This document shows, in pieces, positions 5,861 through 19,560 of a stretch of DNA of 64,000 bases (position 1 is the first letter of the stretch; each line of letters opens with the position of its first letter). The DNA is from an uncultured Chloroflexia bacterium (GTDB taxonomy: Bacteria; Chloroflexota; Anaerolineae; B4-G1; SLSP01). A program made the position numbers and the translations under genes. The notes beneath the pieces were generated by a model. That model saw only the letters and a program-made list of their open reading frames with translations. It had not been told where the DNA came from and did no database searches. The stretch lies in contig CAVVUS010000012.1 in assembly GCA_963751345.1 (NCBI GenBank), positions 1 through 64,000 on the forward strand, read 5' to 3'.

Positions 5861-7054
5861 TCACGCCGCCGCCGTCGCATTCGCCGGCCTGGGGCCCGTA
5901 GCATACGGCATCCCGTTCTTGTCGATACAGGCGACCGCCTGGACGATGGCTTTGGGATTCTGCACGGTGATCGGGTCATCTGCCACGTAGTTGCGCATGC
6001 GTGCGCCAAAGAGGCTGACTGTGAGGGGCTCATCGCCTCGCACCAGCACGAAGTCCTGTGACTGTCCGACCGTCGTCAGGGCGCCGTTCCCACCGGAGAA
6101 ACACTCTACATTCGAGATCGCCGTGTGCCCCCGCCCCTCAATGATGAAGGGATGGATATCCTCCAGTGGGGCACCGGCGTTGGCGATGATCGAGCCCTGA
6201 CCGATCTGCCAGTTGCGGTTGAAGTCGTTGTCGCCCAACTTGTGGATCCCTACACAGACACAGTCCAGGTTGAAGTTGGTCAACTGGCCATAGGTCGCCG
6301 CACCCAGATAAATACCGCCCCACGTACCAAAGGTGAAGAGATCCATGAGCTGGGCGTTGTCGGTGTGGTCGATGATGTAGCTGAACGTCTTCCTGGCCAT
6401 CACGGCATCGATCACGGCCTTCTTATGTCCGCCATCGATAAACCGCCGGTTCGCGGGATTGATGTGACAATGCAAGATCCGGGGGATGTCATAGCAGTAG
6501 TCAATCGCGACGAAGGTGCCGCTGAGTGGATAGCCGTAGCAGTGCTCGATCAGTATCTGCTCGACGATCCGGCCTCGTTGCGCTCTGAAATCCATCGCCA
6601 GATATTCCCCGTAGAAGGTGAGACCTGACAGCGTCACGCCCTGGGCACCACTGACTTGAGAGGCCTGAATAGTAGGTGGATAGGCGATGATCTTCGCAGC
6701 ATCGTCCGCGGTCTGTCTTGGATACCAGAACTGGATTCCTCGGACCTGGGTCGCGTGTTCCACGGTCAGAAAGGGCCTGGACTCATCCTCGATCGCAAAG
6801 ACGCTGCCGACGGGCTGTGGCTTATGCGGGTGACGGGTGCCACGTCCCACGGGGCCGTGCACGCCGATCAACGAGGCATTCTGGCGCAGTATCACACCGC
6901 CTTCCACCGGGTAGGGCTCCTCGGTAGGTTCGACGAACAGCGCCGCGCCACGCGGTGAAGCCCAGTCGATGGCTGCCTGGAGCGCTTCACGATTATCCGC
7001 CGCCGAGTTCTCCGCCAAGACACCAAAGTCGCGAATGCTCTTGTACATCGTCAC
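5861..7054 (-). CDS. Pectate-lyase-superfamily-like right-handed beta-helix protein, function unknown
   Basis: N-terminal SIRDFGV..ADNREALQAAID motif typical of Pectate_lyase_3/GH55/GH28-like N-termini; no signal peptide. Confidence 0.6.
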   Translation of the reverse strand: MTMYKSIRDFGVLAENSAADNREALQAAIDWASPRGAALFVEPTEEPYPVEGGVILRQNASLIGVHGPVGRGTRHPHKPQPVGSVFAIEDESRPFLTVEHATQVRGIQFWYPRQTADDAAKIIAYPPTIQASQVSGAQGVTLSGLTFYGEYLAMDFRAQRGRIVEQILIEHCYGYPLSGTFVAIDYCYDIPRILHCHINPANRRFIDGGHKKAVIDAVMARKTFSYIIDHTDNAQLMDLFTFGTWGGIYLGAATYGQLTNFNLDCVCVGIHKLGDNDFNRNWQIGQGSIIANAGAPLEDIHPFIIEGRGHTAISNVECFSGGNGALTTVGQSQDFVLVRGDEPLTVSLFGARMRNYVADDPITVQNPKAIVQAVACIDKNGMPYATGPRPANATAAA

Positions 7055-7334
7055 CTCGTCTCGCGCTACCTAAAGAACCACACAGAACACAAGCCTTCAT
7101 AGTCCAATTGCACAGTCTCAGCAGTGTAACCACTCACGACAGCCTGGCAACCGACGGTCGCGAGGCTGCCGGTCCGCACCCCCTTGGCCACTATGGCGGT
7201 CTTGCAGGTCCGCCAAATGGCCTAGTACCTGCGACCGCTGAACAACCCTTCGACGACCCGTGACCTGGTGCTATCCTAAGATCAACCATGCAAGGGTTTG
7301 GGTTCATTGTATGGCCAGAATATAGGAGGCTTAT

Positions 7335-7526
7335 ATGGCACAACAGGTCAAGGATGTCGTTTGTGGGATGATGGTGGACCCGGATACCGCGCCGGCGAAG
7401 GCGACGTACAAGGGCGAGACTTACTACTTCTGCTCGCCGGGCTGCAAGGTCTCGTTTGAGCGGAATCCGGAGCAGTATCTCCAGCCGGAGAACGCCGGAG
7501 CCCATCAGCACGCCCACCATCACTAG
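7335..7526 (+). CDS. YHS domain metal-binding protein with His-rich tail
   Basis: KDVVCGMMVD..YKGETYYFCSPGCKVSFERNPEQY; ends HQHAHHH; AGGAGG SD. Confidence 0.93.
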   Translation: MAQQVKDVVCGMMVDPDTAPAKATYKGETYYFCSPGCKVSFERNPEQYLQPENAGAHQHAHHH

Positions 7527-7624: not shown

Positions 7625-8675
7625 CTAGCCTCCAACGTAGCGAGCATAGAGTGCCCGGGCCACGGCAAGATCGTCTGTCCCCTTGATGATCGCGCGCCCA
7701 TCCCTGAAGAGCGTCAGTTCGTATCCGCCGGTACGGAACCGCAGCAGATAAGCATTGTGGTCCAGTTCGCCCAGCGGGGCCAGGCGAGCTGCCAGCGCAG
7801 GGAAGTCGGGCGGTTGCCTGTCCTTGGAGTTGCCTCCGGGCCTTGCCGAAGGGCTTCACCTGTACGGCGTCGCGACCACAAAGCGCAGCACTTGCCGTCC
7901 CTTGACGCCCCTCCAGGAAGTCGTAACGGTGCTCGTCACACGCCGGACAGGGCTCCTCGCCCTTGGTCAGGCCGATGCGCTCAACGATCCCTCGCCACAC
8001 GTCGACGTAGCGCAGATCGCGGCACAGGGCGTCGCTCTGACCGGTGAGCAGCTTGAGCGCCTCGGTCACCTGGAGCGCTGCGATGACCTGTGGAACCGTT
8101 CCCAGCACCCCCACCATATCACAGGTGTCGGTCGTGCCGGGGGCGGGCAGATCACCGACCATGCAGCGGAAGCACGGCCCATCTCCCGGCACAAACGGCG
8201 CCGTCATCCCATACATGCCGATCGCCGCGCCGTAGATCCAGGGCCGCCGGTGCTTGAGACAGGCATCGTTCACCAACATCCGAACCTCAAAGTTGTCGCC
8301 GCCATCGAGCACGAGGTCGCAGTCGGCGACCAATGCCTCGACGTTGTGAAAGTCGACGTCTGCCACAACTGGCTCCACCGTCACCTGGCGGTTCACGCGC
8401 TGCAGCTTCCTCGCTGCCGCCACGGCTTTCGGAAGGTTAGCGGCGATGTCATCCTCGTCGAAGAGCGCCTGTCGCTGCAGGTTGTGCTCCTCGATGTAGT
8501 CGCGATCCACCAGGCGCACATATCCCACCCCTGCCCTTACGACGCCCGAGGCCAGCGCCGTGCCGAGCGCCCCCACACCGATCACGACGACGCGCGAGCG
8601 CAGCAGCCGCTCCTGCCCCTCGACGCCGATCTCAGACAGCAAGATCTGGCGAGAGTAGCGAGTCAGGTCGGGCAT
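7625..8675 (-). CDS. moeB: ThiF/MoeB-family adenylyltransferase (frame break near 7800; true end YARYVGG*)
   Basis: RYSRQ, GVGALG, DRDYIEEHNLQRQ, PCFRC, TCD catalytic Cys, CPAC; C-terminal LTLFRDGRAIIKGT in the shifted frame. Confidence 0.88.
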
Positions 8676-8727
8676 CTGAAAGTCGTCTCCCTTCGCGTTT
8701 CCCCTGCCGGCGAAGCAGCAGAAGCTC

Positions 8728-9583
8728 TCAAGCCTGAGAGGTCCCCTCAGCGACGAGCGTCTCGCCTGCCAAAACCTCGTTCATACTGCCGCTGCGGAAT
8801 CCCTCGAGATCGACGGTGACATAGGCATAGCCGAGCTCTTTGAGGCTGGCGACGAGGCGCCCGCGGTTCGGCTCCTGGAGCAGCCTCGGGAGATCCGGCA
8901 GTTCTACCTCGAGGCGAGCTACGGTATCGTGGTGGCGAACGCGCACTTGGCGCAGCCCGAACTCCGCCCGCAGCAGATCCTCTGCCGCCTCCACGCGACC
9001 CAGCGCCTCGGCTGTGATTCGGGCACGGTAGGGGAACCGAGAGGCGAGACAGGCCATAGCAGGTTTGTCCCACGTCGGAAGCCCCCTTTCCCTGGAGAGC
9101 GCACGTACGTCATCCTTGGTCAGCCCCGCCTCAAGCAGCGGGGCACGCGCACCCCATTCCTTCGCAGCCCGCATGCCCGGCCGGTGATCTCCCAAATCGT
9201 CCAGGGTTGCGCCGTAGACCACGTGCTGGAACCCAGCTTCCCGAGCCATCTTCGTCAGATCGGCGAAGAGATGGCCCTTGCAGAAGTAGCAGCGCTCCGG
9301 GGGATTGTCTCGCGAAGTTCGGGTCGCCCAATTCATCCGTGGTGATCTGCCGCTGGCGGGCGCCCAAGGTCCGGGCCAGCTCCGCCGCTGCCTCTCGCTC
9401 GCTGGCGGGATAGGTCGGCGAATTGGCCGTGACAGCAAGAACACGCTCCGTGCCGAGGGCGTCGATCGACGCCGCCAGCAGATACGAGCTGTCCACTCCC
9501 CCGGAGAAAGCCACGACCACGCTGCCGAGCTCGCGCAGTTGGTCGTTCAGCCGCGTACGCTTGTCAATCAAGGTATCCATCAT
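8728..9583 (-). CDS. larE: ATP-dependent sacrificial sulfur transferase LarE family (frame break near 9320)
   Basis: PP-loop AFSGGVDS, RCYFCK, RPGMRAA, WDKPAMACLASRFPY, VDLEGFRSGSMN. Confidence 0.9.
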
Positions 9584-10514
9584 CAGTCCACATCGAAGAG
9601 CGGCGTGCTCAGGTACCGTTCACCGGTATCGGGCAGGATCACCAGCGATCAGCTTGCCGGTGTTTTCCGACCGTCGAGCGACCTGGACCGCCGCGTACAC
9701 CGCTGCGCCCGAGCTGATCCCGGCCAGGATCCCCTCTTCCCTCGTCAGCCGACGTCCCATCGCTATCGCCTCGTCTCCGGTAACGTGGAAGACTTCGTCG
9801 ATGATATCCGTGTTCAGTACCGCCGGCACAAACCCGGCGCCGATGCCCTGGATCTTGTGACCGCCCGGCGCCCCACCGGCCAGGACCGGGGACTCGGTCG
9901 GCTCAATAGCGATAGCCTGGAGCCCTGGCTTCTTCGCCTTCAGAGTCTCGGCGACACCGGTGATGGTGCCACCGGTGCCCACACCTGCGACCAGGATATC
10001 CACCTGGCCGTCCGTATCGCGCCAGATTTCCAGCGCCGTGGTCTCGCGATGGATCTGTGGGTTGGCCGGATTCTCAAACTGCTGCAGAACGAAGGCATCG
10101 GGCCTCTCAGTCGGCCAACTCAGCAGCCTTGTCGATCGCGCCCTTCATCCCTCCCGCCCCCGGCGTCAACACCAGTTCGGCGCCCAGCGCCTTCAGCAGC
10201 TTGCGCCGCTCTATGCTCATCGTGTCCGGCATTGTCAGGACCAACTTGTACCCACGCGCAGCGCAGACGAACGCCAGGGCGATGCCGGTATTCCCGCTGG
10301 TCGGTTCGATGATGAGCGTGCCCCGACCGATGCGCCCCTCGCGTTCTGCTGCGTCGATCATGCTCACGCCGATCCGGTCCTTGACACTGCTCAATGGATT
10401 GAAGAACTCCAGTTTGGCTACGACTTCGGCGACCGCGCCACCGGTCACCCGGTTCAATCGAACCAGAGGTGTATTTCCCACTAACTTCGTCATATCGGTT
10501 GCGATTCTCATCAT
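9583..10514 (-). CDS. cysK: Cysteine synthase A (several frame breaks)
   Basis: [12 protein letters not shown]-lysine motif [42 protein letters not shown]. Confidence 0.93.
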
Positions 10515-10549
10515 CCGTCCTCCCATTGGGCAAACTTTCGCTACACACA

Positions 10550-11224
10550 TCAGTTACCGGGGCGCGCTGGTTGCGGCCCAACTGTTCCGGCAGGAGATTC
10601 GCCAAGCCGGACCTGAAAGACGGCCAGGCCGGCCCGTAGATTGGCCCTCCACGCGCCGATCTGCCGCGCGGGGGGGGCGAGGAAGATCTCCCGCACACGC
10701 TCCAGTCCGAGCTTCTGACAGAGCAGTCTGAAGTCCCGTACGGAGCACAGGTGAACGTTAGGCGTATCGTACCACTCGTAGGGCAAAAGTGGGGTCTTGG
10801 GCATACGTCCGTTGACGAGTAACTGCAGTCGCACACGCCAGTACGCGAAGTTGGGAAAGCTGATGATCGCCGCCTTCCCCACGCGCAGCATCTCCTGGAT
10901 CACGCGCACGGGATCGGACGTCTGTTGAAGCGTCTGGCTCAGGATCACGACGTCAAAAGCGTGTGCATCGTAATTACCCATACCCTCCAGCATGTCACCG
11001 TGGTACACCGCTACGCCGAGGCGGATACAGGCCAACACGGCCTCGTCGTCGATCTCGATCCCGCGCCCCACACAGTTCTTGTCCTCTGCCAGCTTGGCCA
11101 GCAGTTGGCCATTGCCACATCCCAAGTCCAACACGCGCGCCTCGTCGGGAACCAGGGATGCGATCAAATCGTGATCCGGGCGGCGCTGGTAGGGCTGCGC
11201 CCCTATTTTCGACGATCCGCTCAC
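10550..11224 (-). CDS. metW: Methionine biosynthesis protein MetW
   Basis: [48 protein letters not shown]; GTG start overlaps the metX stop. Confidence 0.92.
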
Positions 11225-12409
11225 AACTCGCCCTCCCGCACCTTGCGGTGCACGTTGGCCAGGAAGCTCCGTACCGTCGTCCACAACTGGTCATTGGGCA
11301 GCAGAAACGCGTCGTGGCCGTAGGGATTCTGTATCTCCAGGAACGTGGTCGGCACGCCGTTCGCCTGCAACGCCTTGACCATCTCTTTCGACGCCAGGGT
11401 AGGGAAGAGCCAGTCACTGCTGAAGGAAACGACGAGGAACTCGGATCGCACATCCTTGAACGCCTCAACCAGAGACCGATGACCGTTGGCCAGATCGAAG
11501 TAATCGATGGCTTTGGTGATATACAGGTAGGAATTCGCATCGAACCGCCGGACGAAAGCGTCGCCCTGGTACTTGAGATAGCTCTCGACCTGGAACTCGG
11601 TCTCGAAGTCGTAGCCGAAGGACTCCCGCGTCTGCAGGCGGCGCCCGAACTTGGAACGCATCTGCTCATCAGAGAGATAGGTGATGTGGCCAACCATCCG
11701 GGCGATGGCAAGCCCGGCCGAGGGCTGCGCCTGATCGTAGTAATCACCGTGCCGCCATTCGGGATCGGCCATAATCGCTTGCCGTCCGACCTCGTCGAAG
11801 GCAATTCCTTGGGCGTTGAGACGGGCAGACGTGGCGATGGCCAGCACCGATGCCGTGGCATCGGGATACCGTACCGCCCAGTCGAGCGCCAGCATGCCGC
11901 CCATGCCGCCCCCAGCGACGGCGAGCAGCCGCCGGATGCCGAGATGCTCCACGAGCCGCTTCTGTGCGCGGACCATGTCGGCGATGGTGACCACGGGAAA
12001 GCTCAGGCCGTAGGGCTCGCCGGTCCCCGGATCGATGCTTGCCGGCCCGGTACTGCCCTTGCAGCCGCCAATGACATTGGCGCAGACGATGAAGTAGCGG
12101 TCGGTGTCGTAAGGCTTGCCCGGCCCCACCATCGCGTCCCACCACCCCGGCTTGCGGTCGTCCGCTGTATGATAGCCGGCAAGGTGGGCATCCCCGGAGA
12201 GCGCGTGAAAGATCAGGATCGCGTTATCGCGCGGGCGCATTCAACGTGCCGTACGTCTCATAGGCCTGGGTGACCGGGCTCAGCGCTCGGCCGCAATCCA
12301 GCGGCAGCGGATCGTCAAAGGTCCACGTCTGGGTCTCGACGAGGCCCACACTACCGGAGCCGCCCAGCTTCGAGTCGTCCCTGATCTCGATAACGTTATC
12401 GATAGACAC
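11221..12409 (-). CDS. metX: Homoserine O-acyltransferase MetX (frame break near 12240; nucleophile motif reads GGGMGG)
   Basis: AYETYGTLN, HALSGDAH, GWWD..VGPGK, NVIGGCKGSTGP, RRFDANSY, SDWLFP, GHDAFL. Confidence 0.92.
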
Positions 12410-12419
12410 GGCTAGCCTC

Positions 12420-13754
<1,335 letters not shown>

Positions 13755-13766
13755 TCAGCATCCGGG

Positions 13767-14856
13767 TCAGTGGGATGCTGCCGGACCCCCACCGAGATCC
13801 ATCACAAAAGTGTAAATGTAGGAGACCAGTCCATCGATCTGTTCGTCCGTGAAGATCTGGCCATATGAGGGCATGCCGGTGCCCATCCCCCCGCGTAACA
13901 TCTTGCCCTCAAGCCTCGCCGGGCTGGTCCCCAACATACGACGCGGATCCGTAAAATCGGGCGGCTGCATCGCTGTCTGCCCCCCCTCCAGCGTTTCAGC
14001 ATCATACGGCGGCAGGCCCTGCACCATCACTCCATCGCCCTGCCCTGTCTCGCCGTGGGCTGCAGCGGCTTCTTGACGGTAGATGCGCCCTGCTTCATCC
14101 AGTGAAGCCGGTGTCGTCTGCCGCGCCCAGATCCACGCCACCGCGTCCCAAACATCCATATCGCTCAGGGTGTGCAGCGCCGGCTCGCCGCGAAGCTGCG
14201 TCCAGAGCTCCGCCGGACTGTGGCTCCAGTAAGTGGCATCCTCTAGCGCGTAGCCGGGCAATAAGGATGCCCACTGCCCACCGCGTTGCGCCACCGGCGT
14301 TGTCTCGGGCACCACCGCGGCCTCCACCGGCGCATCCGGATCGATTCCCAGTTGGACGTATCGAGGCGTCCCTGTCGTCTGGGAGACTCCCTCGCCCGTC
14401 GGAGTGAACGAGGAGCTCCCCGTGACCTCGATCGTGCCCCGCATCCGCCAGTGATTGGGTCCGCACCAGCGGGTGCAGTAGAAAGTATACGTGCCGGGCT
14501 CATCGAAGACCAGGGACGTCGTGGTCCACTTCCCCGGCAAGACATCGACTGCCGGGCTGTCGTGACGCCCTACGGCAAACCCGTGCGTCACATCGTCTGA
14601 GGTCAACCGGAGCTGCAGCGGCACCCCTACCTGCGCCTCCAGGACATCGGGCGTCCATCCTCCCTCATCGGCCATCCGCCCGTGGAGTTCCACGGCGGCC
14701 CCCGCACGCCCGAGCCAACGACCGCCAATCGGGATGGCGACGGCAGCCGAGTACCAGAACAGTCACCACAACGCGTGCCAGACGTTCCAGCTTTGGAGTC
14801 GAGGCCGGCAGGCCAGGATGCCTCCGATCAACGCCGGCGTTCAAATCAGCAGCCAT
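13767..14856 (-). CDS. Membrane-anchored CuA cupredoxin fused to cytochrome-c-fold domain(s) lacking CXXCH (frame break near 14745)
   Basis: VTHGF...YCTRWCGPNHWRM CuA motif; C-terminal GRIYRQEAAAAHGETGQGDG..PPDFTD..GGMGTGMPSYG..QIDGLVSYI class I cyt c pattern. Confidence 0.8.
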
Positions 14857-16212
14857 AGCATGCCAGCCGTGACGAGCGAGCCATAGGCCAGTACCGGCAA
14901 GGATTGGCGGGGAGAGACGGCACGCCGCACCTCCACCGCCGCCCAGAACAAGCCAACTACGAGAATAGCTACCTGAAGCAGGGGTACCACGGACATCAAG
15001 ATACGGCTGCCACGCCCACCCGGCGGTGCCCAGGAGATTCCAGCCTAGACCCAGGGGGTCGGAGAGGACGGGCCATACGTAGGCCAGACTGTCAAAGGCG
15101 AAGCTCATCGTGAAGGCGATCCAGGCCGCCAGCCCCAGCGGGCTCATGGCGTGAGCCAGGTCGATAGCGCTCCGCCTCGGCGAGCCGGGCCGCCCTGCCA
15201 TACGCCATCCCGTCCGTGCGGCCAACCAGAATAGCCCCGGGCCGATTCCCAGCGTCAGGGCAAGGAACGCGAGGGCGTAGAGCCCCCAGATCGACGTGCC
15301 GATCGCGTAAGCCGCCTCGGTCAGGTGGCCCCAGGGTCCGAGCATCACGGCGGCATAGACAGGGGCACACGCTAATATGAAGAGTCCGAACCAGGCGCGA
15401 TCCAGGCGCCGCGCAGGTCTCGTTGCCCACGACGTGATCCCGGCGGGATCCGCAGCGCCCGCGGCTACCTCGGACCCCATCGGGCGCACCCAGAGCGCCA
15501 TATTGTCATAGGGGCAAGTCTGTACGCAGGCCAAGCACAACCCACAGTCAAAGCTCTCCTTGAGAACCGCCGGGAAAAGACCCCACGAGCAGGCACTGTG
15601 ACAGGGCTTATCGCTGCACCCGGTGCAGACACCGGGGTTGCGGACCCGAACGGCCAGCGGGGCAAGCTGCTGGTACCATCCAACGTATCCACCAATGGGG
15701 CATAGATAGCGGCAGAAGGCACGCCGCTCGAAGACGAGAGCGAGGCCGGTGGCCGCCAGGAGCAGGCCGAGCAAGATCCACCCCGTGGCGCCGGGGCGAG
15801 TGAGCAGCACCACGCTGAAGAGCCCCATCGCCGCGAACCCGCCCAGTTGCAGCCATTGACCTCGTAACCGGCGGGGCCATCTCGCTTTGAGGCCTACGCC
15901 CTTGCCGGGGCGCGTGATGCCGCCCTGCTGCAGCCACTCCCCCACGACTGGGATGGGGCATATGCTGCACCACGTCCGTCCTCCAATGGGGATGAGGACC
16001 AGCTTCAGCACCGTCCACCAGGCAATCCATACGAAGATGATGGCAAAGTTGCGCCCGCCGACCGGCGTCCCCAGCAGCCCTGCGAGAATCGTGAAGACAA
16101 GGCCGGCCAACGTGATCGCTTGGCCCAGGAAACGTGGCCACCGGCGCCTCAACAATGGGCCCAGCCGGCGGACCCGGGTGAGATCGAAGCCGCGCTCCGG
16201 AAGCGACGTCAT
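14841..16212 (-). CDS. Polytopic 4Fe-4S binding protein (NapH/NosR/FixG-like polyferredoxin; frame break near 15000)
   Basis: GRTWCSICP and RAFCRYLCP motifs; CTGC..CHSAC; CGLCLACVQTCP; many TM helices. Confidence 0.88.
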
Positions 16213-16679
16213 GCTTGCATTACCCTACCCGAGCGCTCAGAAGACACGCCAAAGACGGACGCCCATACTACCGCCGCCAATGCCAGCCCTGTTGCCCGCA
16301 CCCACAGCCGGTTTGGACCCACCCGCAGCCTTCCGATCATGAAGGGGTGAATGTCGCCACAGGGCACGGAGCAACGAAATCGGAAAGATCCGGGACGGTC
16401 GGCCACGAAGGAAAGCGTCGCCACCTGCCCGGGATTCGCGGTCACAGAGATGTCGTACCCGTCGAGATAGAGCCCATGGACGACGTCGGTCGATCTCACC
16501 TCCAGCGTTACCCTGTCGCCCGGATTCACGGTGACGGTGCCCGGCGTGAAGCTGAACCGGGATGCCGAAATCGACACGACCCGGTCTTCGGGGTCAATCT
16601 GCTTGCCTGGTATGGGCACGCAGATGATCACGAAAACGGCCGCCAACAACACGAGCCATTGCCGGGGAACCTTAGGCAT
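16209..16679 (-). CDS. Stand-alone CuA-type cupredoxin (COX2-like domain) with two TM anchors
   Basis: DVVHGL...FRCSVPCGDIHPFMIG matches H..C-x3-C-x3-H-x2-M. Confidence 0.88.
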   Translation of the reverse strand: MPKVPRQWLVLLAAVFVIICVPIPGKQIDPEDRVVSISASRFSFTPGTVTVNPGDRVTLEVRSTDVVHGLYLDGYDISVTANPGQVATLSFVADRPGSFRFRCSVPCGDIHPFMIGRLRVGPNRLWVRATGLALAAVVWASVFGVSSERSGRVMQA

Positions 16680-16687
16680 AGACCACG

Positions 16688-17134
16688 TCAGGGTGTCGGT
16701 GGGCCGAAACGACTGTACTGCTGATCTACGTAAGCCCGGATCTCTGTGACCGACTTACCCTGCCCGGACATACGCATCGTATCGTGCGTGATGTCCACGC
16801 AGAGAGTGCAGCCCAGCGCATGGCTGTCGAAATGAACGGTGCCGTCTGCATCCGTGCCCTGCACATAGCAGCTATAGTTGGACGTGTGGCCCATAGCCCC
16901 ACAACCACAGTAGCAGGGGACCTGCTGCATCACGTCGGGATTGGCAACCGCGAACTGGTAAGCCTCGCGCACCACCACAGAAGCCTGCTGCACTTGCTGC
17001 GGCATGTCGGCAATCGGTGCGAGTTGAAGGGCGGCATTCGCGCCCGCCGCGCCACTCGCGCCACAGCTTGCCACGACTGCAGCCACCACAAGCATGCCCA
17101 CGACCATCCCCACCATCTTCAGGTGTTGCGTCAA
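16688..17134 (-). CDS. PCYCGC motif-containing lipoprotein
   Basis: Lipobox VASC; VPCYCGCGAMGHTSNYSCY; HALGCTLCVD; GAGGAGG SD before the TTG start. Confidence 0.92.
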   Translation of the reverse strand: MTQHLKMVGMVVGMLVVAAVVASCGASGAAGANAALQLAPIADMPQQVQQASVVVREAYQFAVANPDVMQQVPCYCGCGAMGHTSNYSCYVQGTDADGTVHFDSHALGCTLCVDITHDTMRMSGQGKSVTEIRAYVDQQYSRFGPPTP

Positions 17135-17383
17135 CGTTGGCCTCCTCGAGAGCTATCAAAGGTTGCGTGTCCCGCTTCTGCCCAGGGCAGCATCAGAGGA
17201 CGAGGTCACGCTTCGAACAAGTCTAGCAGAAGCCGTCGTGGCATTTGAGGGCCAAATGACGAGAGCGGGATCCCGCCAAATGGCGGTGCCTGCAGCCGGC
17301 CAAAAGCGCCTGTTGATGGGATTGTGTGTTGGTTATCCTGATCACAATAGTCCGATCTATCGCGTCCGTGGTCGCGCTTACTC

Positions 17384-17406
17384 ATATCTAAGATATTAAC
17401 TATAAT
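17384..17406 (+). promoter_or_regulatory. -10 box (TATAAT) of copB with an upstream palindrome
   Basis: ATATCT-A-AGATAT at 17384-17396; TATAAT at 17401-17406. Confidence 0.55.
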
Positions 17407-17451: not shown

Positions 17452-19560
17452 ATGAGTAACGATTCGCAAAGTACGGCCCATCACGCCGCGCACGATCGAG
17501 ACAAGCATGCCATGCACCAGGCGGTCATGACGCACACAGACCACGACGGTCACGAGAACCATAGGGACGGTAGCAATCACGGGGGCCACGTCGACCACAC
17601 CGGCCACGAGCAGATGTTCCGGCGCCGGTTCTGGATCAACCTGATCCTGACCCTCCCTGTGCTGGTCTTCAGCCCGTTTATCCAGCAGATATTGGGTTTT
17701 AGCATCCCGCCATTCCCCGGCAGCCGCTGGATCGGTCCGGTCTTCTCCTTCATCGTCTTCTTCTACGGCGGGTTGCCCTTCATCAAGATGGCCATCCCCG
17801 AGGTGCAGCACCGGCTGCCTGGGATGATGACGTTGATCTCGCTGGCTATCGTTGTGTCATTCGCTTACAGCGTCTTCGCCGTCTTCACTGATCCCGCAAG
17901 CGGCTTCTTCTGGGAGATGGCTACGCTGATCGACATCATGCTGCTGGGTCACTGGATTGAGATGCGCAGTGTCAGGCAAGCCTCGGGCGCGCTTCAGGAG
18001 TTGGCCAACCTGATGCCGGATACCGCTGAGCGCATCCTGGACAACGGCGAGACCGAGGAAGTGCCGGTGAGCTGCTCTGAAGGAAGGGGACCTCGTCCTC
18101 GTGCGTCCGGGCGCAAGCGTTCCGGCTGATGGGGAGGTCACTGAAGGGAAATCCGGCGTCAACCAGGCCATGATTACGGGCGAGTCCAAGCCGGTAACCA
18201 AAGAGCCCGGCGATAAGGTGATCGGCGGGGTCATCAACGGCGAGGGCAGCCTGCGCCTGCGGGTGACCGCGACAGGCGAAGACACCGCGTTGGCAGGCAT
18301 TATGCGGCTCGTCGACGAGGCGCAGAAAAGCAAGTCCGATACCCAGATCCTGGCGGACCGGGCGGCCGGGTGGCTCTTCTATGTGGCGCTGGGCGTGGCT
18401 GCACTCACGGCTATCGGATGGATCATCGTCCAGGGACTGCAACTTAGCGTGCTGGATCGCGTGGTCACGGTACTGGTCATCGCCTGTCCGCACGCGTTGG
18501 GTCTGGCGGTGCCGCTCGTCGTCGCCATCAGCACCTCACTGGGTGCGCGCAACGGCATCCTGGTACGCGATCGTTTGGCGCTCGAAGAAGCCCGCGAACT
18601 TGACACCGTGATCTTTGACAAGACCGGCACGTTGACGGAAGGCAAGTTCGGTGTGGTCGACATGGCCGTGTCCGGCGACTGGGATGAAGCGCGGGCGCTG
18701 GGACTCGCCGCAGCGGTCGAAGGGGACTCGGAGCACCTGCTGGCACAGGCCATCCGGGGGAAGGCCAGTGAACGCGGGTTGAGCCTGCCGGAGGTCCGCG
18801 ACTTCGAGGCCATCAAGGGTCGCGGTATTCGGGCCCAGGCTGAGGGCAGGACGATCTACGTCGGTGGCCCACAGCTGCTGGAGATGCTGAAGACAGAGCC
18901 GCCAGAGGTGTTGCGGACCTTCGCGACCGAGGCCGGTGTCAAGGCCCAGTCGTCGTCTATCTTGTGGATGAAACGGACGTCGTGGCCGCGTTTGCGCTGG
19001 CCGATGTCATTCGTCCGGAAAGCCGCGAGGCTGTCAGACGGCTGAGGGAATACGGTGTTGAGGTCGCGATGCTGACGGGTGACAGCGAGGAAGTGGCCCG
19101 GGCCGTAGCGAAGGAGCTTGGCATCGAGACCTATTTCGCCGAAGTGTTGCCCGAGAACAAGGACCAGAAAGTTGCACAGTTACAGGCACAGGGGAAACGG
19201 GTGGCGATGGTCGGTGACGGCATCAACGACGCCCCCGCGCTGACGCGCGCGGACGTCGGGATCGCCATCGGCAGCGGGACGGATGTCGCCATTGAATCGG
19301 CGGGCATCATCCTCGTCGAGAGCAATCCGATGGATATCGTGCGGATCTTCGAGCTGAGCAAGGCGACTTACAGAAAGATGATCCAGAATCTCATCTGGGC
19401 GACCGGGTACAACGTGATTGCGCTGCCGCTGGCAGCGGGGGTATTGGCGCCGGTTGGCATCTTGCTCTCGCCGGCAGTTGGCGCACTCCTGATGGCGCTC
19501 AGCACGGTGATTGTTGCGATCAACGCACAGTTGCTCCGGCGCGTGGATCTTTCACGGTAG
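17452..19560 (+). CDS. copB: Copper-translocating P1B-3 type ATPase (frame breaks near 18075 and 18950)
   Basis: His-rich N-terminus, [12 protein letters not shown] (CPH), [24 protein letters not shown]. Confidence 0.93.

Follow-up and report, generated by a model that had tools for sequence, protein, structure and literature searches.

A copper-redox cassette joined to sulfur amino-acid genes in an uncultured Anaerolineae genome: a candidate operon fusion inside one regulon

Copper poisons cells largely via thiols and iron–sulfur centres. Inverted repeats of the 7-2-7 type are the classic site of NarL-family regulators, and protein-thiocarboxylate routes are represented by CysO–CysM–MoeZ in Mycobacterium and by HcyS–HcyF–MetY in Wolinella. 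Caulobacter crescentus responds to copper stress by stepping up cysteine biosynthesis and sulfate assimilation; the same paper also cites Cupriavidus for a copper-stress sulfur response (PMC8224329). We analyzed a 64,000-nt stretch of contig CAVVUS010000012.1 from an uncultured Chloroflexia bacterium (assembly GCA_963751345.1; the whole stretch is referred to as the window), in which ten genes, all on the minus strand and read from 17134 to 7625, join a copper-redox cassette to genes of methionine and cysteine synthesis and sulfur activation. It is, in our opinion, fairly probable that this block arose as a fusion of operons within a single regulon, in which copper handling and sulfur genes would be co-expressed. 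As in Caulobacter, copper handling and sulfur amino-acid supply would then be on together, which is predicted here from the genes; however, the response there involves separate operons, is described at the transcriptome level and has methionine synthesis going down (PMC8224329), whereas in the window the genes are physically fused behind the copper cassette, the cis-element is common and methionine genes are included. The known rise in cysteine supply under copper stress runs through separate operons; here, the link appears to be hard-wired twice, since one promoter element fronts copper exporters, the CuA/iron–sulfur cassette, methionine and cysteine synthesis and sulfur-activating enzymes, and some species are predicted to fuse these genes into one operon as well.

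Gene identities were obtained from open reading frames (ORFs) and Pfam on the proteins of the window, and from NCBIfam on intact orthologues. The window's own genome is designated G000; other G-numbers stand for genomes, L-numbers for loci and C-numbers for contigs. The block consists of the following genes, in the order of reading.

16688..17134, minus strand: PCYCGC-motif lipoprotein, first gene of the cassette (PF13798, 99 bits)
16209..16679, minus strand: membrane-anchored CuA-type cupredoxin with the motif C-x3-C-x3-H-x2-M (COX2 33.6 bits, Cupredoxin_1 31.1 bits)
~14841..16212, minus strand: Fer4_5, NapH/NosR-like membrane polyferredoxin bearing CX3CP motifs; frame apparently shifted near 14998
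13767..~14790, minus strand: CuA-cyt, a CuA cupredoxin fused to a cytochrome-c-like domain in which AAAAH stands at the CXXCH position; apparent frameshift at 14746
12420..13727, minus strand: metY, O-acetylhomoserine sulfhydrylase, 39 nt 3' of CuA-cyt (TIGR01326)
11221..12409, minus strand: metX, homoserine O-acetyltransferase, the genome's only copy; apparent frameshift at 12237
10550..11284, minus strand: metW, the genome's only copy (Pfam MetW, 226 bits)
9620..10550, minus strand: cysK, cysteine synthase A, with a second copy on C22; apparent frameshift at 10110
8728..9583, minus strand: LarE-like PP-loop ATPase (larE), paralogue of the C43 copy beside larC; one apparent frameshift
7625..8675, minus strand: ThiF/MoeB-family adenylyltransferase (moeB) with a PRK12475-type C-terminal domain, stop codon at 7625-7627; apparent frameshift near 7830

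The ten same-strand genes and their names, as given in an initial annotation made from the sequence alone, were confirmed by ORFs, Pfam and NCBIfam, and the stop codon of moeB agrees with the start coordinate given there. Its gaps of about 50 bp or less were found for most pairs, which range from overlaps up to ~50 nt, but not between the polyferredoxin and CuA-cyt genes, where ~50–70 nt were counted, the range being due to an uncertain start codon. The 39 nt between CuA-cyt and metY contain an AGGAGG ribosome-binding site as their sole content and leave no space for a promoter, in agreement with the junction without terminator or promoter described earlier. No terminator-like sites on the minus strand of the block and no promoter-like sites between its genes were found by a simple scan, which also missed the promoter proposed below and is therefore insensitive in this organism. 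The previously reported lack of a riboswitch for S-adenosylmethionine (SAM) was borne out as well: positions 1–30000 of the window gave no Rfam matches at E ≤ 1. The only SAM riboswitch of the genome (C18:65208-65339) precedes a 35%-identical MetY paralogue (C18:65690-66689), and the main metYXW of G000 is without one. In the loci of eight relatives, the sole Rfam matches were a T-box ahead of trpE in G021 and, in L029, a SAM riboswitch ahead of an unrelated metY.

The cassette would have its own promoter, composed of a 7-2-7 palindrome, a 46–47-nt spacer and a TAnnnT −10 box, and the sulfur genes would most likely ride on the cassette transcript, with a predicted start of the ten-gene transcript near 17212. 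The sites concerned and the genes flanking the block are listed below.

17273..17286, no strand: 7-2-7 palindrome CCGCCA-AA-TGGCGG, candidate operator common to the divergent copB and PCYCGC promoters (alignment, recurrence in the genus)
17220..17225, minus strand: TAGACT, −10-like hexamer 47 nt after the palindrome, with invariant T, A and T
17334..17339, plus strand: TATCCT, −10-like hexamer 47 nt from the palindrome, before copB (TACCCT at the same offset in G002)
7210..7223, plus strand: degenerate palindrome before the YHS gene, with TATCCT 48 nt downstream
17452..19560, plus strand: CopB-type P-type ATPase, N-terminus rich in His, read in three frames and divergent from the cassette
7335..7526, plus strand: YHS-domain gene, convergent with the moeB end of the block

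CCGCCA-WW-TGGCGG was found upstream of the PCYCGC gene in G000, G002 and G020, and a near variant in G021 (GCGCCAATTGGCGG); TAGACT or TACACT lies 46–47 nt past the palindrome in all of these genomes. All 17 elements aligned share GCCA..TGGCG without change and, at constant distance, the T, A and T of the −10 box. A pattern search of 22 genomes of the genus yielded 21 sites, spread over 12 genomes (reversed control, 3 sites), and TAnnnT occurred at 46–47 nt at 16/21 of these sites (13/18 from the main tally plus three further sites) versus 1.5% at random positions. Together, palindrome and hexamer behave as would a promoter with its operator on the upstream side. Genes found first after the 16 sites with this geometry were as follows.

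PCYCGC first: 3 sites (G000, G002, G020; copB on the opposite strand in G000 and G002)
CuA first: 1 site (G004, CuA-polyferredoxin-CuA-cyt-cysK-larE-moeB)
metY first: 2 sites (G007, G004)
MtaB-like first: 4 sites (two in G000, and G002 and G017; MtaB-moeB in G017)
FTR1-MtaB-moeB: 1 site (G001)
YHS first: 2 sites (G013, G001)
Genes of no known family: 3 sites (G004 C143, G006 C217, G017 C1)

Thus, the sulfur genes stand under the element in several gene orders, also without the cassette, which is our reason to place them in the same regulon and to regard the block as a fusion. Genome G007 (97% complete) is without the cassette, and its gene order is response regulator, histidine kinase, element, metYXW-larE-moeB; sulfur genes are likewise found without the cassette in G001 and G017. 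The element with the same spacing precedes both MtaB-like genes of G000. Elsewhere in the genus it would drive metY, MtaB-like-moeB operons, YHS, FTR1 and copB, so that the sulfur genes would have been co-regulated with copper handling beforehand and the fusion would only have made the link physical. As a separate observation, the two MtaB-like genes of G000 belong to 95%-identical divergent DUF4185/MtaB-like pairs (C42:15212-17906 and C47:111285-113977) with the element between the genes, and both pairs adjoin a heavy-metal P-type ATPase. In G004, in which the element fronts CuA, a 433-aa ORF (L015:2247-3545, G004:C569) lies between PCYCGC and the element.

The alignment of CuA-cyt homologues led to 80 genome loci, and a single CuA-cyt protein to 80 metagenome loci; the metagenome cassettes, all at 54% identity or less, included no further clade members and served as a second sample from outside the clade. 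The PCYCGC gene was present within 3.2 kb upstream of CuA-cyt in 61/61 genome and 45/45 metagenome loci with enough flank (106/106). By this gene order, PCYCGC, CuA, polyferredoxin and CuA-cyt can be called a conserved Anaerolineae copper-island cassette and a fixed unit. Its usual neighbours are a NarL-type response regulator (RR) with a HisKA_3 histidine kinase (HK), DUF1573, HMA-domain P-type ATPases, multicopper oxidase, YtkA, DUF2085, Lgt and YHS. No account of the cassette or its link to sulfur genes turned up in our literature search; one bacterial paper mentions the PCYCGC protein as a lipoprotein of unknown function.

Adjacency was scored when any of the six sulfur genes started within 2 kb after CuA-cyt, at loci with at least 2 kb downstream. 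The cassette is encoded in 6/22 genomes of the window's genus, and a sulfur gene is next in 6/6: metY directly follows CuA-cyt in G000, G002, G020 and G013, cysK-larE-moeB in G004, and moeB in G021. In four genomes of the genus the distance from CuA-cyt to the next sulfur gene is 39–45 nt, with a ribosome-binding site as its sole content. In a quick maximum-likelihood tree of 69 CuA-cyt proteins (12 of the 80 loci rows, including L019 of G002, having been dropped by an ORF-length filter), the five sulfur-adjacent rows formed one clade, with a Shimodaira–Hasegawa-like approximate likelihood ratio (SH-aLRT) of 96, in which G021 was basal; G041, of the same family, was sister. Since the sulfur-adjacent rows form a single clade, the fusion is taken to have arisen once, and later differences in gene content between the fused genomes can be deletions. 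The sister genome G041 carries a 75-residue N-terminal metY remnant (L098:6708-7088, G041:C8), 75% identical and 6 kb from the cassette, which adjoins a YHS-fused P-type ATPase and hints that metY neighboured the copper island even earlier than the fusion. Genes of cysK followed directly by a ThiF-like gene were found in another family of the order (G026:C144, G032:C100 and G034:C25), and this pairing is therefore older than the link to the copper regulon.

Judging from the neighbouring genes, control most likely lies with a NarL-type two-component system that responds to copper. At L046, the element stands directly after a NarL-type RR–HK pair and is followed by PCYCGC, and NarL-type RRs of the cassette-linked family stand directly after CuA-cyt in 16 genome loci. 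The RR of G007 is 52% identical to the cassette-linked RRs, and the regulators of this family beside the element or the cassette are 52–62% identical to each other in the RR; in the RR tree that of G007 stands beside, not inside, the cassette-linked clade, with poor resolution there, and its orthology with the cassette-linked RRs is plausible. An orthologue of the RR–HK is encoded in G000 at C1:4294-6363, the RR at C1:4294-4950. The element resembles NarL/NarP sites in having two 7-nt arms with a 2-nt spacer and, in G007 and L046, a NarL-type RR and HisKA_3 kinase encoded beside it. It differs in the heptamer CCCGCCA, which is unlike TACYYMT, the candidate site being centred ~66 nt before the predicted start, and in the signal, which would be copper and not nitrate. 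Copper is the most likely signal because the recognisable members of the regulon are copper proteins; genes for CopB, YHS, multicopper oxidase, cupredoxin and P-type ATPases are found around the element. Once copper handling is on, the cell would gain more cysteine, methionine and activated sulfur. The copper-stress-coupled thiol/sulfide operon suggested in the initial annotation fits the linkage in six genomes and the shared element, while its copper response is deduced here from gene content.

Several findings weigh against a fusion inside one regulon. Outside the clade, sulfur genes follow the cassette in 0/57 genome and 0/39 metagenome loci (0/96); the proposed survey of synteny thus revealed a linkage kept within the clade (six genomes) and none beyond it. 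With the single origin indicated by the tree, the six genomes are not independent observations. The 160-nt gap before moeB in G021 contains a perfect TATAAT, the single-copy metX and metW fit strictly copper-dependent expression awkwardly, and an internal promoter may lie within the reading frame of CuA-cyt. Passive juxtaposition, in which a mobile copper island came to lie, in a variable part of the genome, beside an accessory amino-acid biosynthesis cluster whose sulfur genes have a promoter of their own that escaped recognition and to which the palindrome is irrelevant, would account for an adjacency of one origin that is missing from all other loci. It also suits the patchiness of both blocks in the genus (MetX in only 5/22 genomes, the cassette in 6/22), the cassette of G021, which adjoins the trp operon, with its moeB having its own TATAAT, and the later gene content, which internal deletions explain while the flanks stay adjacent automatically. 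We nevertheless consider such a juxtaposition rather unlikely: the element, in its 47-nt geometry, immediately precedes metY in G007 and G004 and also precedes MtaB-moeB operons in the cassette-free G001 and G017, the geometry is kept far above the chance level, and the short gap after CuA-cyt holds only a ribosome-binding site in four genomes. The chance neighbourhood that had been left open in the initial annotation is disfavoured on the same grounds, since in relatives the element precedes metY, MtaB-moeB, YHS and FTR1 that are not adjacent to the cassette, and since six species of the genus retain sulfur genes right behind CuA-cyt. Counts of sulfur genes anywhere in the flanks (5/75 genome and 2/80 metagenome loci, ~1.7 Mb; rough expectation from G000 copy numbers, 3–4 genes) gave a weak enrichment and were not used.

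The element adds its own points to this side of the balance. It was not found upstream of PCYCGC in 95/108 cassette loci (~450 nt examined), nor in any of the 16 loci with RR–HK directly after CuA-cyt; the MtaB-cysK pair of G015 is without it, and three genus sites front genes of no known family. The core GCCA-N2-TGGC within ~450 nt upstream of PCYCGC was present in the other 13/108 loci, 10 of them outside the genus, where it sits among genes of cupredoxin, multicopper oxidase, YHS and P-type ATPases. The copper signal is guessed from neighbouring genes, and a copper context was ruled out for the RR–HK orthologue of G000, which has sugar-acid surroundings. The flanks of the palindrome also pair, making a hairpin role possible, and in G020 and G001 the element lies 3' of a P-type ATPase gene, in a terminator-like position.

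These last features lead to the reading that the element is real but its signal is sulfur, thiol or redox, or that it is a DNA or RNA hairpin acting as a terminator or attenuator. The regulated genes do include metY, moeB and MtaB-like genes, the flanks pair with varying sequence (a 16-bp stem in G020, 10–12 bp elsewhere), and in G020, G001 and G007 the element comes after the end of a gene upstream. We judge this reading unlikely, because the fixed 46–47-nt distance to TAnnnT suits a promoter, a NarL-type regulator is encoded beside the element in G007 and L046, and the remaining members of the regulon are copper proteins. In G000, the copB/PCYCGC element and the two DUF4185/MtaB elements lie between divergent genes, where there is nothing to terminate; with three such loci, the element is not merely a terminator.

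The sulfur genes of the block were assigned to families as follows. MetY exceeded the cut-off of TIGR01326 (O-acetylhomoserine/O-acetylserine sulfhydrylase; 650.3 vs 495.1 bits) and fell below that of the equivalog NF006096 (660 vs 726 bits). The G007 orthologues of MetX and MetW passed NF001209 (539.7 vs 331) and TIGR02081 (241.5 vs 189.5), respectively, and metX and metW are adjacent in the window, which makes them a direct-sulfhydrylation pair. CysK passed the equivalog TIGR01139 (471.5 vs 350.95 bits), as scored on the G004 orthologue, which is 82% identical to that of the window. In G000, metX and metW are single, while cysK, larE and moeB are each represented by one further copy elsewhere. 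The ThiF/MoeB-like protein was below the equivalog cut-offs of PRK12475 (350/510), TIGR02356 (234/275) and TIGR02355 (154/377) and passed Pfam ThiF alone (232.8 bits); because the curated MoeB/ThiF cut-offs were missed, it is called ThiF/MoeB-family only. Its C-terminus (...VGG) was considered as a fused sulfur carrier and rejected, the terminus not being conserved (GT in G007, GL in G021).

The LarE-like protein scored 331 (G004) and 324 (G007 orthologue) against a cut-off of 150 bits for TIGR00268, which is its likeness to the nickel-pincer pathway (LarB, LarC, LarE). The partnership with larB/larC was not seen, however, as the window block has no larC: that gene lies at C43:75951-76442, beside the other LarE paralogue (C43:74114-74896). 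The copy in the block travels with ThiF-like, CysK and MtaB-like genes, and its substrate is therefore probably different. The block likewise resembles the protein-thiocarboxylate routes in clustering a ThiF-like adenylating enzyme with CysK and MetY, but no ThiS/CysO-like carrier or JAMM protease is encoded in the block (ThiS-like genes lie on C14, C23 and C18), and by score its cysteine synthase is a CysK and not a CysM.

Carboxylates are activated for the insertion of sulfur by enzymes of the LarE-like and ThiF-like kinds, and CuA sites need no inorganic sulfide. The first of these properties favours dedicated sulfur delivery, in which MetY, CysK, LarE and MoeB would build a Cu–S centre or another sulfur cofactor in the cassette proteins, and the second speaks against it. 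The operon-like linkage in six genomes would suit such delivery, as would sulfur-trafficking genes near the cassette in two other lineages: at L068:4424-5842, TusA, DsrE and TusA-OsmC, and at L077:4654-5889, an SQR/FCSD-like flavoprotein, are encoded just 5' of the cassette control element. We find it very improbable all the same. The cassette is intact in all the loci counted above, with no sulfur gene next to it outside the clade; sulfur genes occur without the cassette in three genomes; and metYXW, the genome's only copy, is ordinary methionine biosynthesis. No NosZ was found in the genome, the NosZ model matching only the two CuA domains, far under its cut-off, and no NosD is linked to the block, NosD-like repeats being present only on C17 and C33. 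The sulfur genes would thus not be a dedicated supply for the metal centres of the cassette, and the machinery for an undescribed Cu–S cofactor that the initial annotation had offered as its other option was not supported by the empty outside loci, the cassette-free genomes G007, G001 and G017 or the lack of NosZ.

It is also conceivable, if doubtful, that CysK, the LarE-like and ThiF-like enzymes and the MtaB-like protein make a small sulfur-containing metal-binding metabolite (a thiocarboxylate or thiol) under control of the metal regulon, metYXW being a passenger. MtaB-like genes adjoin moeB in G001 and G017, cysK in G015 and larE in L044, five different gene orders occur under the same operator, the cysK, larE and moeB of the window are second copies in the genome, and the other LarE copy is the one beside larC. 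On the other side, no candidate substrate, exporter or carrier was found, with ThiS-like genes only on the three contigs named; a transposase lies between larE-MtaB and the cassette in L044; and the cysK-moeB pairs in another family of the order have no metal context in the stretches examined. MtaB-like genes are rare, being present in 5/301 genomes of the class, four of them outside the genus, in four other families, without sulfur neighbours. This proposal is made because of the recurrent adjacency alone. Its fuller form, in which a copper-sensing NarL system would switch on, via the 7-2-7 element, a CysK/LarE-like/ThiF-like/zinc MtaB-like pathway to a thiocarboxylate or thiol copper-binding metabolite, alongside the extracytoplasmic CuA/polyferredoxin cassette, seems to us just as doubtful; if true, the ten-gene operon would be a complete copper chelation and redox-handling unit.

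Under the favoured reading of an operon fusion within one regulon, the unstudied cassette would gain a regulator site and a regulon, and its function would become testable. The LarE paralogue and the ThiF-like enzyme would be implicated in metal stress, and self-sufficiency in sulfur amino acids among the widespread uncultured Anaerolineae could be influenced by exposure to copper.

The proteins of the cassette itself have partial counterparts. It resembles FtrABCD and the NapH/NosR/CcoG proteins in that a cupredoxin lying outside the membrane is combined with a membrane-embedded polyferredoxin of the CX3CP type, and the FTR1 permease gene under the same operator in G001 is a further likeness to FtrABCD; no FTR1 gene was seen in the annotated stretch 1–24000 of the window. 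The cassette differs from these systems in its two CuA-type cupredoxins, the PCYCGC lipoprotein and the fused cytochrome-c-like domain. The PCYCGC protein scored 69.8 bits with the CYCXC family model of NCBIfam, under its 90-bit cut-off. The polyferredoxin, with two CX3CP motifs, passed Pfam Fer4_5 (33.7 vs 22) and was under the cut-off of the NapH/MauN model TIGR02163 (44.1 vs 213 bits). The CuA ligand motif H...C-x3-C-x3-H-x2-M, a predicted site, was read from the translations of both window cupredoxins and was present in 81/81 CuA-cyt homologues examined. The haem-attachment motif CXXCH was kept in 75 of these and lost in 6/81, the window reading AAAAH. Its loss is common to G000, G002, G020, G013, G004 and G041; G021 keeps CXXCH, and the loss is therefore not an exact match to the fusion with sulfur genes.

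Six of the ten block genes contain one apparent frameshift each. Four of the six breaks (10110, 12237, 14746 and 14998) are single extra bases relative to the 95–96% identical G002. Between G000 and G002, 22 indels were counted in about 11 kb, nearly all of 1 nt; they fall within coding sequence, and their places differ between the two genomes. In G002, 667 bp of larE and 327 bp of the 3' end of moeB are missing. From this comparison, the six frame breaks are most likely assembly errors and not pseudogenes. Several of the indels adjoin GATC or CCGG, a pattern suggestive of systematic errors of long reads where motifs are methylated.

The flanks named in the initial annotation, YHS and CopB, are both present on the plus strand at the positions listed above. 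A 60-aa ORF at 17206-17388 was considered as the YHS gene and rejected, having no Pfam match, the true YHS gene being that at 7335-7526. The ABC system at 1128-2818, earlier described as NosFY-like, proved to be merely a generic ABC-2 permease and ATPase adjoining an NPCBM_assoc/Ig-like protein. Between the YHS gene and an OmpR-type RR/HK pair, a 397-aa ORF (5861-7054, minus strand) without Pfam or NCBIfam match was found, and a promoter-like site is located at 7150-7123.

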